NCBI RefSeq assembly: GCF_006345805.1 | Contig: NC_043018.1 | Location: 27,838,001-27,902,000, forward strand | Length of the DNA: 64,000 nt | Direction: 5' to 3' | From: Octopus sinensis | Taxonomy: Eukaryota | Shown here: positions 1-59,176 of the stretch, one piece after another | How positions within the stretch are numbered: the stretch's first letter is position 1 | How the letters are laid out: every line of letters starts with the position of its first letter | Program-made: the position numbers and the translations under genes | The notes under the pieces: model-generated | The model's database searches: none | What the model was told of the DNA's origin: nothing | What the model saw: only the letters and a program-made list of their open reading frames with translations

Positions 1-150
1 TGAGTATTTGTAAATAAGGAGAAAGAAACATTAGAGAATTTTCAGATCATGGTTATTCAAGTATAAATATATAGATATTTATATAATAATATAGCAAACT
101 TACACAGAATACAAACGACAGAGAAAATTAAAGGGGAGAAGTTATGGTGT

Positions 151-273
151 CCGACAGCTGTTTCTGGGGGGATCAGGCATCCTTTATAATGTTGACAGAT
201 GTAATTCATCACAATATACAACCTGTAATGGAAGTAAATAAACACTAGATGAATTCAGCTTCCGTCTTCAAGG
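151..273 (-). ncRNA. Degenerate hammerhead-like motif with ~100-nt stem II insert
   Basis: Minus strand reads CC-TTGAAGA-CGG...(~100 nt)...CCA-GAAAC-AGCT-GTC-GG. Stem III is palindromic (ACAGCTGT) with a GUC site. C3 is changed to U and stem I has only 2 bp. Confidence 0.4.
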
Positions 274-2774: not shown

Positions 2775-3186
2775 TGGACCCCTTTGATTACCATTTTATT
2801 CTAGTGGACCCCCATAGCCATTTGAGGTTTAAAAACGAGTTTTATAGAAACTTCTTTCAAAATCCCTGTTTTGATATTCAAACATTAACTTGTTTAGGTT
2901 GAACCATGTAAAATGTTGAAGAAAGAATCCCAGCTGTTTCTTGCAATACGTAACAATACATTCACCTAAAGATGGAATTCTCAACCATTTTTTAATCCTT
3001 GAAGCCTTTTGATTACTATTTCATTCTGGTGGATCCCCATAGGCATTTGAGGTTTTAAAACTAGTTTTGTAGAAATTTCTTTCAAAATCCCTATTTTTTT
3101 CATCCATTTAACTTGTTTAGGTTGAACCATGTGAAATGTTAGAGAAATAAACTCAGCTGTTTCTTGCAATGCATAACAATACATTC
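2775..3186. repeat. Diverged ~225-bp tandem duplication (possible hAT-type MITE remnant continuing at 3598-3757)
   Basis: TTTGATTAC...CCCCATAG...TTCTTTCAAAATCCCT...TTAACTTGTTTAGGTTGAACCATGT...CAGCTGTTTCTTGCAAT...AACAATACATTCA occurs twice. Confidence 0.6.
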
Positions 3187-3187
3187 A

Positions 3188-10874: not shown

Positions 10875-11622
10875 TTAAAATTTTTTGCCTTTCCCTTTGG
10901 GTGAATTTCTCTGTATGAGTATGTTGGAATGGTTAAGTCTGGGCTTGTACTTTTCAATGAAGAATGTTTCCTTGTTTAGTCTAATTTGTGTTGGTGTTCC
11001 GATAGCACATTGGTAAAATGGAAAGATTAAAAATTGTGGTAGTAGTTGCTTTGCGCATTTCTCAATGTGCTCACTAAAAGGTATCATTCTGTATTCTGGG
11101 AATGCAATCTGTTGTCGATGTAGTGTGCATCTACGTCTGAGTGATAGTCCCGTGGATCCCACGTAGTCTTGGTGGCAGCCCGAGCATTTTATGACATAAA
11201 TTATGTTTTCAGAGGCACAAGTAAAATTAGATTTGATCTTGAATTTCTGTCCCTCTTTGAAGAGGAATTCTTATCCTTCTAGCAGGTTTGGACATGTTGC
11301 ACAGTTCGGTCTAACACATTTTTTTACTTTTGCATCCGTAATTTCAGAAAACAATTTGCCTTTGTGAGAATTTTTAAGTGATTTAGGTTGTTTGTAGCTT
11401 TTAATGATTGGTGTATGTTTTAGAATTTCCTTTAATTTGGGTCCTTATGAAGTATTGGTAAATTCTGGGTGATGATGGTGAAGGCTTCTTTGTTTCTGGG
11501 GTTGTATGTGGATATGTAAGGTAGTATTTTCGAAGAAGGTGTGTTGTTGTGTTGAACTTTTCTTAAAGTTTCTATGTTGATTTCTGTTGCACGTCTGATT
11601 CCACCCTCTATAAAACCAAAAG
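10875..11622 (-). pseudogene. Penelope-like linker plus GIY-YIG endonuclease remnant
   Basis: LPYISTYNPRN...KKCVRPNCATCP...FTCASENIIYVIKCSGCHQDYVGSTGLSLRRRCTLHRQQI...FSEHIEKC...RLNKETFFIEKYKPRLN, interrupted by a frameshift and a stop. Confidence 0.88.
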
Positions 11623-11727
11623 GAGCTCCCATTCTTGGATATACTAATTAAAAAAATTAACCTTAAAATAGAAACAGACATTTTTTACAAAGCCACAGAC
11701 GCCAAACAATACCTTCTTTTTAATTCC
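11623..11727 (+). pseudogene. Inverted Penelope RT C-terminal fragment
   Basis: ELPFLDILIKKINLKIETDIFYKATDAKQYLLFNS matches the Penelope RT pattern PFLD...T..Y.K.TD...YL.F.S. Confidence 0.85.
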
Positions 11728-17971: not shown

Positions 17972-18124
17972 CTACTCTTTCTCTATTGGCAAGAAATCTT
18001 GAAATATAATTGAAAAATGACATATATAATATCATAGGCACTAATTTATCACAAAGCACGCTATCTATAATGTAGCGTGTTTGTTCACGAATATATACGT
18101 ATTCAGTGCAGATTCTAGTGTATG

Positions 18125-18159
<35 letters not shown>

Positions 18160-18260
18160 TTTCTCAGGAAGACACGATATACCTATCATTATGGGTAATA
18201 CCAAATGTACCTTTCGGATTTTTCATAATGTGATGTAAATCTTTGGTATAACAATTGCAT

Positions 18261-18351
18261 GCGGCTGAAGAGAGCTTTAAACAATCATTTATGTCGATTA
18301 TACAATAATGTAAGAATAGGTCGTTTATAAAGCTTGAAACACGTGTACCGC
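18261..18351 (+). ncRNA. Type I hammerhead ribozyme with canonical core and long stem II
   Basis: GCGG-CTGAAGA-GAGCTTTA...TAAAGCTT-GAAAC-ACGT-GTA-CCGC. Stems I, II and III all pair and the site is GUA. It sits inside a ~225-bp unique segment flanked by (TA)n. Confidence 0.88.
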
Positions 18352-18587
18352 GACATCCTTTGTTCTCTGTTTTTGATTTCATTTGATATATATATATATA
18401 TGCATGCATGTATGTATGTATGTATGTATGTATGTATGTATGTATGTATGTATGTGTGTGTGTATGTGTGTGTGTGTATTTAGATGTTCAGATATGTTTA
18501 TGTATGAATATACGCTTATTTGAACCTTGTCTCTGTGTGTGTTTGTGTGTGCGAGTGCGCACCACAACGGAATTCATATATATAATG

Positions 18588-20800: not shown

Positions 20801-20814
20801 ATACCAATGTAACT

Positions 20815-21262
20815 GTTTGTGTATCTGTGTTTGTCCCCCCAAACATCGCTTGACAACCAATGCTGGTGTGTTTACGTCCCCGTAACTTAGCGGTTCAGCA
20901 AAAGAATAAGTACTAGGCTTACAAAGAATAAGTCCTGGGGTCGATTTGCTTGACTAAAGGCGGTGCTCCAGCATGGCCACAGTCAAATCACTGAAACAAG
21001 TAAAAGAGTAAAAGAGTAAAAGAGATATATATCTGTGTGTGTGTGTGTATATGTTTGTGTGTCTGTGTTTGTCCCCCCAACATCACTTGACAACCAATGC
21101 TGGTGTGTTTACGTCCCCGTAACTTAACGATTCAGCAAAAGAGACCGATAGAATAAGTACTAGCCTTACAAAGAATAAGTCCTTGAGTCGACTTGTTCGG
21201 CTAAAGGCGCTTCTCCACCATGGCCGCAGTCAAATGACTGAAACAAGTAAAAGAGTAAAGAG
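20815..21262 (+). mobile_element. Two tandem 3' halves of SINE family A
   Basis: TCTGTGTTTGTCCCCCCAA...CTGAAACAAGTAAAAGAG occurs twice. Confidence 0.85.
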
Positions 21263-21721
21263 TTCGGATATTGTTGTTTTATACAGAGAAGAAAAAGTAC
21301 GTACCGTCTAAGCTGCCCAGCTGATGTAAATATATCTTTGAAAATCGAAGAAGCAAAGAGAAAGAGGATAACTACGGACAACCGCTTCGAAACCTCCAGT
21401 TTCTGTATTTAGATTATAAATTCACGTTTTTACCAATAATAAATGGTGTACTTTTTAGTGAGTAAACGCGTAAGTGAGGATCTAGATAAGCTAGGGTTTT
21501 CAGAAAAAAAAACCAACTAACCCATTCGCATATTATAAATATTATCTGTACATGGAGGAGTAAAAAATATGTAAAACTTATCTCAAGTTTAAAATGTGAT
21601 ATTGGCTTTGTTATCCACATTCCAAAGATGGAGCTTTGTATCTTTGGAAGAAACTAGATTATAAATTCACATTTATGTTAAAAATAATTGGTTCACTAGG
21701 TTTTGTGAAGAAGTGCCTATG

Positions 21722-24178: not shown

Positions 24179-24867
24179 GTCTGTATGTCTGTCTGTCTGT
24201 CTACCTGTCTGTCTGTCGCTTTTCTCTCCCTCCTTTGTAAGAATTTAATAAATAGATATATCTGAATGTTTACTGGCTGATGTTTGTCGATTGTATATCT
24301 TCTCCATTTCCTTATGTGCCTTATAAACCCTGGGTAAATTTCCAATTAACCCCAACCCATACGTAGTATTCAATTGCAATATTGCCATGCTGTAGTAAGC
24401 ACTTGGTTAAAAATACGTAGATACATATCCAGTAGTATATTGGCTGTTTAATATTCGTTACATAGTTTCTTAACCTCTAATTCATACAGGCATATATATA
24501 TATATATATATATATATAAGATTTTCTATTTTGAATATATTTGGGGTATTTAGGTCTGCTCAGCACTTAGTGCTTGCTTTTTCCATGGGTATAAGTAAGT
24601 ATTTCATTTATGTCTTACGTATTTATCGCTGAGGAGAAGAAAATTCGCATGAATTAAGTTTGAAATTGGGACCAGTACGGTAATAACGGAATTTTTTAGA
24701 AATTTCTATCGGCTCGTTTCGAGACGCATAAATTATAATGGTTATGGACAATATGTCTAATCGCATATTTGCATTAGATTTTTCTTTGTGCCCTTATTTT
24801 ATAAGTATTTAAATTAATCTTTAAGGTATTTTTCGAAAAAATTTTATCCTACATTAGAAGTATATAT

Positions 24868-32165: not shown

Positions 32166-33620
32166 GGTAAAGACCTCCTTCGGTCATGAACAACTATGGG
32201 ATTGCACATAGAAAGTTCCCCTCTGAGGCACAAGTCCAAGCAAGGTTGTTCATGGAAGACCAGCTGTCGCCCATATATTCCAGTCTCGTCTCTCCACATC
32301 ATCTCTCTATATATAAACGGCAAAATGTCTGTGTGTGTGTCCTTTATACAAATCCACAATTTTTCAGTTAAAGGGCTCGCACTTTCTATGGTCATTTAAA
32401 ACCATCCAAGGGTGGTCGTGCACATCTTTATATTTCCCTAGTCACCCCGCAAAGCCATTAAAAAATCAATAGAAGTGACTTTTTAGTTAATTTTTTTATC
32501 CAAAACCCAATCAAAATGCCCGAAACTTGATACGCCAATTGAATGCCAGCTAGCTGTATGTGATTGGTCGGAGATTTGGACAGTACTCGCGTGTATGTGC
32601 GCACGCACGCAGCTCTATATGCATGCACTAGCACTATGACCCGGCGTTTACAGGTCATAGTGATAGTTATATATACAAACGGTAAAGGGTAAAGACCCCC
32701 TTTCGGTCATGAACGACCATGGGATTGCACCTAGAAAGTTTCCCTCCAAGGCACAAGTCTGGGCAAGGTTGTTCTTATGGAAGACAAGCAGTAGCCCATA
32801 TATTCCAGTCTCGTCTCTCCACATCATTATATATACAAAGCGTAAAGGGTAAAGACCCCCTTCGGTCATGACCGGCCATGGGATTGCACCTAGAAAGTTT
32901 CCCTCCGAGGCACAAATCTGGGCAAGGTTGTTCTTATGGAAGACAAGCAGTAGCCCATATATTCCAGTCTCGTCTCCGCCACATCATTATATATACAAAG
33001 CGTAAAGGGTAAAGACCCCCTTCGGTCATGACTGGCCATGGGATTGCACCTAGAAAGTTTCCCTCCGAGGCACAAATCTGGGCAAGGTTGTTCTTATGGA
33101 AGACAAGCAGTAGCCCATATATTCCAGTCTCGTCTCTCCACATCATTATATTACAAAGCGTAAGGGTAAGACCCCCTTCGGTCATGAGCGGCCATGGGAT
33201 TGCACCTAGAAAGTTTCCCTCCGAGGCACAAGTCTGGGCAAGGTTGTTCTTATGGAGACCAGCAGTCACCCATGATTTCAGTCTCGTCTCTCCACATCAT
33301 TATATATACAAAGCGTAAAGGGTAAAGACCCCCTTCGGTCATGAGCGGCCATGGGATTGCACCTAGAAAGTTTCCCTCCGAGGCACAAATCTGGGCAAGG
33401 TTGTTCTTATGGAAGACCAGCAGTCACCCATGAATTTCAGTCTCATCTCACTACATCATTATATATACAAAGGGTAAAGGGTAAGAACCCCCTTAGGTTA
33501 TGAATGTCTATGGGATTGCACCAACAAAGTTACCTTCCGAAGCACAAGTCCAGGCAAAGTTGTTTTGATAGAAGACCGGCAGTGTCCCATGTATAACCAG
33601 CCTCCTCACTCCACGCCACC
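32166..33620. repeat. ~160-bp tandem array (7 units) derived from a SINE 3' end
   Basis: Units start at about 32166, 32688, 32848, 33008, 33165, 33321 and 33480. The last unit continues into the SINE body. Confidence 0.92.
32302..32666 (+). mobile_element. Non-autonomous Helitron (365 bp)
   Basis: A|TC 5' end and a 3' hairpin at 32627-32667 ending (C>A)TAG|T, with no TSD. The empty site CCACATCA|TTATATATAC is visible in sister units. Confidence 0.88.
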
Positions 33621-59082: not shown

Positions 59083-59176
59083 CGGCCAATATCACCAATC
59101 AGTTTCGCACTAAGGGTTCAACGGAGTGTTAGGTGACGGTCCGATTGCGTAACCCTGCGCTCATCAGAGATAGCCG
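59083..59176 (-). ncRNA. Decayed hammerhead ribozyme with long stem II
   Basis: Minus strand reads CGGCTATCT-CTGATGA-GCGC-AGGGTT...AACCCT-TA-GTGC-GAAAC-TGATTG-GT-GATATTGGCCG. The core and stem II are intact, but the cleavage nucleotide appears deleted. Confidence 0.7.

Follow-up and report, generated by a model that had tools for sequence, protein, structure and literature searches.

A long-armed type I hammerhead motif in a probable truncated pseudo-LTR of a Hydra-clade Penelope-type element in Octopus sinensis

The stretch of Octopus sinensis DNA analysed here (the window; 64,000 nucleotides of contig NC_043018.1) is rich in microsatellites and animal repeats. A short repeat unit at 18156..18387 on the forward strand, bordered by microsatellite on both sides, contains a type I hammerhead motif at 18260-18352 (+). 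The features of this locus are as follows.

18121..18158: (TA)n target microsatellite, left of the unit
18156..18387 (+): probable 5′-truncated, tail-less 3′ end (pseudo-LTR, pLTR) of a Hydra-clade Penelope-type element (PLE); 49 matches at 88-100%, including itself
18260..18264 (+): stem I, 5′ strand (UGCGG); predicted pairing about 0.2, covaries across families
18265..18271 (+): catalytic core CUGAAGA; 577/592 letters equal the commonest letter (100 copies)
18272..18335 (+): stem II region of 64 nt; 8-bp base, 3 pairs beyond a bulge, weakly folded interior
18336..18339 (+): catalytic core GAAA; GAA in 297/297 letters
18339..18346 (+): palindrome ACACGUGU, the predicted stem III of a dimer
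18347..18348 (+): cleavage site between GUA and C, predicted from sequence
18348..18352 (+): stem I, 3′ strand (CCGCG)
18387..18475: (TA)n/(TATG)n microsatellite, right of the unit

The core letters CUGAAGA, GAAA and GUA, which a first-pass annotation had recognised, lie at 18265-71, at 18336-39 and directly before the predicted cut after 18347, a position that agrees with the sequence. The GUA at this site fits the NUH rule. Stem I is formed as that annotation had it, by GCGG (18261-64) with CCGC (18348-51), plus a U18260·G18352 pair, and the motif has the CUGANGA / GAAA / NUH core and the stems I and II of a type I hammerhead. It had also been called fully canonical, which it is not: the 8-bp base of stem II (18272-79/18328-35) has a G·U in place of the conserved G10.1-C11.1 pair, as do 78/84 family copies, and no stable monomer stem III was predicted. 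Natural hammerheads are described as tolerating variation at 10.1-11.1 (PMC3088659). The proposed extension of the base by AAAC/GTTT shares A18279 with the eighth base pair, so that the arm consists of 8+3 or 7+4 pairs round a 2-nt bulge. Its proposed length of ~65 nt holds (64 nt between the core halves, with 8 firm pairs), while the interior is weak. The 25-nt 3′ half of the hammerhead had 221 exact matches in the 2.72-Gb genome versus 0 for the reversed control, and a hammerhead scan of the reversed loci gave 0 matches in 1,267,965 bases; the motif is therefore more than chance. Rfam returned no hammerhead family for 18165-18385 up to E 10, and for the whole window no hammerhead stood among the 150 of 371 matches listed, these 150 being microsatellite-driven (149 miRNA families and 1 viral UTR).

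The first family search gave 49 matches, from 40 of 1,054 candidates scored, and the window copy is 96% like its closest relatives; ATAC and AT at the ends of 18156..18387 are also consistent with the family. The description of the locus as a solo ~225-bp unit did not survive this comparison. Of the 66 copies whose alignment starts at the first bases of the unit, 48 continue upstream by pattern and another 8 by eye, so the unit is a truncation, the 5′-truncated end of a pLTR. Copies run upstream into pyrimidine-rich, AT-rich, microsatellite-like DNA and downstream optionally into a tail of ~80 nt. Of 117 family 3′ ends, 54 have the tail and 63 are tail-less; 57/63 tail-less and 35/54 tailed ends meet a microsatellite. 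Measured from the cut site, two 3′ ends are favoured, at about +40 and +120 nt (clusters +35 to +44 and +103 to +124), and the 5′ ends of the copies are scattered and vary widely. Partner copies, sought at 49 places, were inverted at 16, direct at 1 and absent within about 1.5 kb at 32, the two copies of the sole direct repeat being 925 bp apart and separated by other DNA. Inverted 5′-truncated partners and an optional tail are traits of EN+ PLEs, although the tail measures ~80 nt here, not 30-40. Four 5′-truncated copies (window 18160; L021, L028, L031) share the same TTTCTCAG start, possibly a truncation hot spot. Contig sets X1, X6, X12 and X13 provided 46, 14, 550 and 338 family-variant entries for comparison; at the place of the window copy's A18307, X1 and X6 had only G. 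Neither joints nor clustered ends appeared in these entries, but contigs reveal neither ends nor strand nor absence and so do not bear on expression. Letters private to the window copy stand at 18169, 18283 and 18287.

An upstream walk from the copies led to an endonuclease of the GIY-YIG type that carries a CxCx5C linker, and endonuclease, 3′ UTR and hammerhead unit stood in the same order on one strand in L204, L205, L206-207 and L208. The element is ordered pLTR (with the hammerhead), ~80-nt tail, 5′ UTR, ATG (some 185 nt beyond the cut site), reverse transcriptase (RT), CxCx5C linker, GIY-YIG, long 3′ UTR and pLTR. This order is complete in L255-256, where an inverted piece is followed by the hammerhead pLTR, tail, 5′ UTR, ATG (2711), RT, endonuclease (EN) and 3′ pLTR, the pLTR-ORF(RT + C-terminal GIY-YIG)-pLTR layout of EN+ PLEs; further pLTR-to-5′UTR junctions were found elsewhere. 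The linkage of copies to an ORF with RT plus GIY-YIG bears out the earlier classification as a Penelope-type hammerhead, the Pfam match to GIY-YIG being weak (E 0.029, below cut-off). The L255 ORF is broken; its N-terminus shares 69% identity with an intact sister ORF of 842 aa, and no intact ORF of the window copy's exact family was found, both L255 and L210 being broken.

Several motifs bear on the clade of this element. DKT stands in place of DKG (ADKTGN in L255, and likewise in sister ORFs; L210 has DKI), the linker reads CNCVTAAAC in L204, and CxCX5C was found by pattern in 13/14 long sister-family ORFs. Judged by eye, the EN has no CCHH and there is no IFD. Insertion is into (TA)n. All of these features (DKT, CxCx5C, neither CCHH nor IFD, a (TA)n target) are given as Hydra-clade traits by Craig et al. 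2021 (bioRxiv 10.1101/2021.04.23.441226). The Hydra-clade elements of the published version (PMC8557442, File S2) are alike in carrying a type I hammerhead in the pLTR, and likewise in DKT, the CxCX5C linker, the lack of CCHH, (TA)n insertion and a palindromic stem III. The printed start of the Hydra-1_Obim protein also matches a sister ORF motif by motif, by eye. On these motifs and the by-eye comparison with the published protein, we provisionally assign the parent to the Hydra clade. Size and tail differ from the published description, in which Hydra elements are generally < 3 kb, a size given as description and not as a strict requirement, with a tail of 30-40 nt (PMC8557442): the sister family measures 4.4-4.8 kb, hammerhead to hammerhead, and the tail is ~80 nt. 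In a tree of 16 RT pieces, all sequences of this genome, the window copy's family adjoins one sister Hydra family, and a 37%-identical outlier stands apart. A distant Hydra-type ORF with 37% RT identity lies inside the 3′ UTR of a family copy (L210:996-2984, +), and the hammerhead scan found none after its stop. Two candidates for element sequence were set aside: what follows the tail in L029 is flank, and a Neptune fragment in L166 lies 1.6 kb away, unconnected to the unit.

In ViennaRNA predictions for 18240-18370, stem I pairs with a probability of about 0.2, the stem II base with 0.42-0.83 and stem III with 0.01. The palindrome ACACGUGU is thus present as the first-pass annotation had noted, but not as a stable monomer stem (1% paired); as a duplex its predicted energy is -10.3 versus +2.4 kcal/mol as a hairpin. 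A palindromic stem III/loop III within the pLTR is a trait of dimeric PLE hammerheads, and because stem III is predicted to be 1% paired in the monomer, cleavage likely needs a dimer. The constrained active monomer made up ~0.3% of the predicted ensemble at 37 °C, which may be an underestimate since ViennaRNA omits tertiary contacts and Mg2+ stabilisation. The whole motif folded no better than shuffles (z +1.21). With this share of active monomer, and with no second family copy within the window, the idea that the window copy is probably active in vivo was not supported; it is probably a fossil. Weak in vitro dimer cleavage of this copy is plausible, as core and stems are intact. For PLE hammerheads, palindrome-mediated dimer cleavage that is weak in vitro has been reported (PMC4209133, PMC6765202); single minimal hammerheads gave no cleavage and dimers little (PMC4209133), and the Anolis hammerhead needs protein, uncut RNA being the substrate (PMC11167929). 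The 5′ junctions of copies showed no sharp pile-up at the cut site. Five of 42 body-linked 5′ junctions fell within -2 to +9 of it (a hand count after removal of 4 duplicate places, with the interval picked post hoc), which hints weakly at occasional copying of cut RNA.

Conservation was assessed in 100 copies, after 31/131 had been dropped because the exact 3′ pattern had served to choose their loci. Columns in which a second letter reached at least 10% numbered 0/35 in the core, stem II base, GAA, palindrome and N17, compared with 8/48 in the insert, 24/96 upstream, 3/10 in stem I and 3/33 downstream. This column conservation favours selection on the ribozyme in a supportive way only. The 33 nt downstream show almost the same conservation as the core (0.952 versus 0.975) and the family copies were chosen by similarity, so conservation alone is no proof of selection on catalysis. 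Across 14 hammerheads of related families, 10/13 predicted pairs had double changes, 2 of the 13 being spurious core pairs. In sister families the palindrome varies yet stays palindromic (ACAUAUGU, ACGAUCGU, ACAAUUGU), in a scan that itself demanded a palindrome. All four intactness checks were passed by 54/106 full copies, a share inflated by the pattern-picked loci. Of the long stem II, only the base is clearly constrained in the window copy's own family.

The long arm recurs well beyond this unit. Across the fetched loci, 81/91 distinct hammerheads in 14/21 groups had at least 40 nt between the core halves, 46 of these 81 belonging to the window copy's family, which biases the sample. The length is 62-70 nt in that family (46 distinct copies), outside the short loop 2 of 3-10 nt, and 47-60 nt in sister Hydra families with long, in some cases intact, ORFs; overall, long arms range from 44 to 104 nt and have no sequence in common. 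Set against published Hydra loops of 3-10 nt, a long stem II is unusual, as had been remarked, and it recurs in other families. Two further long arms that had been pointed out in the window, at 59083 and 151, are indeed long, but lie on the minus strand in other families, and both are decayed.

59086..59171 (-): decayed hammerhead of a second repeat family; 54 nt between the core halves, G at position 17 (59093)
150..273 (-): decayed hammerhead with a UUGAAGA core (271-265), from a third and older family; core halves 100 nt apart

The parent elements of these two families were not found in 30 loci. Further observations concern other fetched loci. L239-L241 and L249-L254 are young Hydra-clade families that combine open frames of 779-1,124 aa and Asn-rich linkers with long-arm hammerheads; at 10.1-11.1 the L241 family has an A·C mismatch. 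More intact-looking long-arm hammerheads of 44-104 nt lie at L006:3014-3120, L028:3092-3226, L086:864-947, L095:1610-1712, L018:1006-1080 and L098:8127-8203; some of these six arms are well folded (interior z down to -6.7). Hammerheads in L227 and L237 adjoin Hydra ORFs, and other families may be their source. A hammerhead with 15 nt between the core halves occurs in L213, immediately upstream of an ORF and beside Poseidon-like fragments.

Comparison with described hammerheads sets the arm apart. Loop 2 is 3-10 nt in 26/26 listed Hydra rows (PMC8557442), versus 47-70 nt between the core halves here, whereas the G·U has counterparts, some of those rows having G·U or A-U at 10.1-11.1 (e.g. Hydra-1_oBim). 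The minimal, palindromic metazoan PLE hammerheads (Cervera and de la Pena 2014, PMC4209133) also have a short helix I, a helix II of 7-8 bp and a palindromic stem III, and are likewise mostly solo truncated copies with some opposite-strand pairs; the present motif differs in lacking the extra base between 9 and 10.1, in its G·U instead of G-C and in its 48-nt loop region. An example descriptor in that paper permits a loop 2 of 3-10 nt only, and the 44 alignment rows compared from its supplement are all short-looped. A similar long arm occurs in Selaginella, where PLE-X1_sMoe and PLE-X1_sTam, marked as deviating, have a loop 2 of 35 and 29 nt, with ~53 nt between the core halves in PLE-X1_sMoe (PMC8557442 File S2). 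Those are, however, single examples from EN-deficient plant elements that target 28S rRNA genes, whereas the arm described here is family-wide in an animal. Poseidon_Ac of Anolis (Frangieh et al. 2024, PMC11167929) also has a pLTR hammerhead, two tail-defined 3′ ends and an AT-rich target, but its ORF begins within stem II, while here the arm is non-coding, the ATG following the cut site by ~185 nt. In the literature compared, no arm of this length was reported across a whole family of animal PLEs, though such variants may occur in the work of Lunse et al. on PLE hammerhead dimers (PMC5785218). We regard the long stem II as a novel form of the known PLE hammerhead with a hypothetical function, and it appears to be an inherited trait of this Hydra subclade. 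The notion that PLE hammerheads are minimal owes something to descriptors blind to loops > 10 nt. The family-wide long arm also occurs in young elements with intact ORFs of 842-1124 aa.

What the arm does is less clear. It may be a working module, through protein binding or a tertiary contact, that gives efficient or PLE-protein-regulated hammerheads, in which case monomeric cleavage of the window copy within read-through RNA would be conceivable; we consider this rather unlikely. It is in keeping with such a role that the arm persists across three Hydra groups with RT cores 64-81% identical, that the arm interior folds better than upstream controls in 11/14 long-arm groups (Wilcoxon p=0.04), and that independent predictions for sister families gave a distal hairpin (88% of cells paired, 2/6 pairs double-changed), albeit from 7 distinct, related rows. 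The protein help received by the Anolis hammerhead (PMC11167929) points the same way. In the window copy's family, however, the interior folds no differently from shuffles (mean z 0.13, 6 copies), variants disrupt 18287-18318 (paired in 42/86) and 18288-18317 (paired in 19/86), and the window copy's insert is 4 letters off the commonest; arms of 44 to 104 nt also share nothing in sequence. A wider version, in which the Hydra subclade, and perhaps most PLE families of the lineage, would form a long-arm class (stem II of 45-105 nt) whose conserved distal hairpin switches dimer cleavage by protein docking or tertiary contact, is equally doubtful. If it were true, Rfam and descriptors with a 10-nt loop 2 would overlook the class, counts of PLE ribozymes would be too low and a ribozyme might be hidden in some 'ribozyme-less' PLEs. 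Less probable still, the insert could be a DNA- or splicing-level signal tolerated in loop II, either part of a promoter or the 5′ splice site (GTAAGA, 18310-15) of a 5′ UTR intron. PLE pLTRs are reported to contain promoters and 5′ UTR introns (PMC4209133; bioRxiv 10.1101/2021.04.23.441226), GT at 18310-11 is retained in 118/122 copies and the tail terminates in TTTACAG; yet GTAAG is absent from sister-family inserts, its bases also fit the distal helix, and no splice joint was found in the contigs, although the acceptor would fall outside the stretch compared.

The identity of the unit itself leaves less room. As a monomer of a non-LTR retrozyme, it would be a short non-coding repeat that yields circular RNA by double self-cleavage. 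Non-LTR retrozymes are, like the unit, short repeats of low GC with a type I hammerhead (PMC7229834; 10.64898/2026.07.22.740005), the unit's size lies within their range, and solo monomers have been described (10.64898/2026.07.22.740005). They are tandem and have no coding link, whereas here there is no head-to-tail array (the direct repeat at 1/49 places lies 925 bp away, across other DNA), the 5′ ends are variable and unit and PLE ORF form one contiguous sequence; this reading is largely refuted and, in our view, very improbable. We give almost no credence to the unit being the pLTR of the genome's abundant Neptune-like PLE. That idea draws on L091, where a Neptune-like RT-EN fragment directly follows a hammerhead unit. 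The unit was in the 3′ UTR of 0/30 Neptune endonuclease loci, the sole match being the upstream unit of L091 itself. These 30 loci and the ORF-linked copies (L204, L255) rule out the adjoining Neptune-like ORF, which belongs to another family.

We therefore favour, with a probability of roughly 0.82, a type I hammerhead in the pLTR of a Hydra-clade PLE, present here as a 5′-truncated copy in (TA)n. Cleavage would likely occur in dimers only, and the lone copy is likely inert, since a dimer is likely required and the window contains no second copy. By analogy with the Anolis PLE (PMC11167929), the element's protein would nick AT-rich DNA, and reverse transcription may start internally at one of the two sites that bound the tail, on a template RNA with an uncut 3′ hammerhead whose ribozyme is protein-assisted. 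An early stop of reverse transcription could have left the ~230-bp window copy. When the whole pLTR-ORF-pLTR is transcribed, its two palindromes would pair into an 8-bp stem III and so trim the RNA (compare PMC4209133, PMC6765202), a pairing perhaps aided by the element's protein. As one among hundreds of remnants, the window copy carries little weight alone; the architecture is weightier.

The remaining observations concern other parts of the window and the fetched loci. A Penelope/Poseidon-type RT-endonuclease fragment lies at 10875-11727 of the window, with a short inverted piece at 11614-11727. A second match of the hammerhead scan, at 24629-24677 (+), has a stem I of 6 bp, a stem II of 3 bp, a stem III of 5 bp and GUA. 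Tandem repeats occur at 32667-33614 (159 bp), 2783-3187 (225 bp) and 20814-21263 (247 bp), in none of which the scan found a hammerhead. The Neptune-like PLE at L131:4449-7577 (-) is very abundant (5,856 candidates) and has an open frame of 1,042 aa; its sole hammerhead-like motif, near the start, is degenerate. At L209:29-1576 (-), open frames show cysteine repeats that by eye resemble sushi/CCP repeats.
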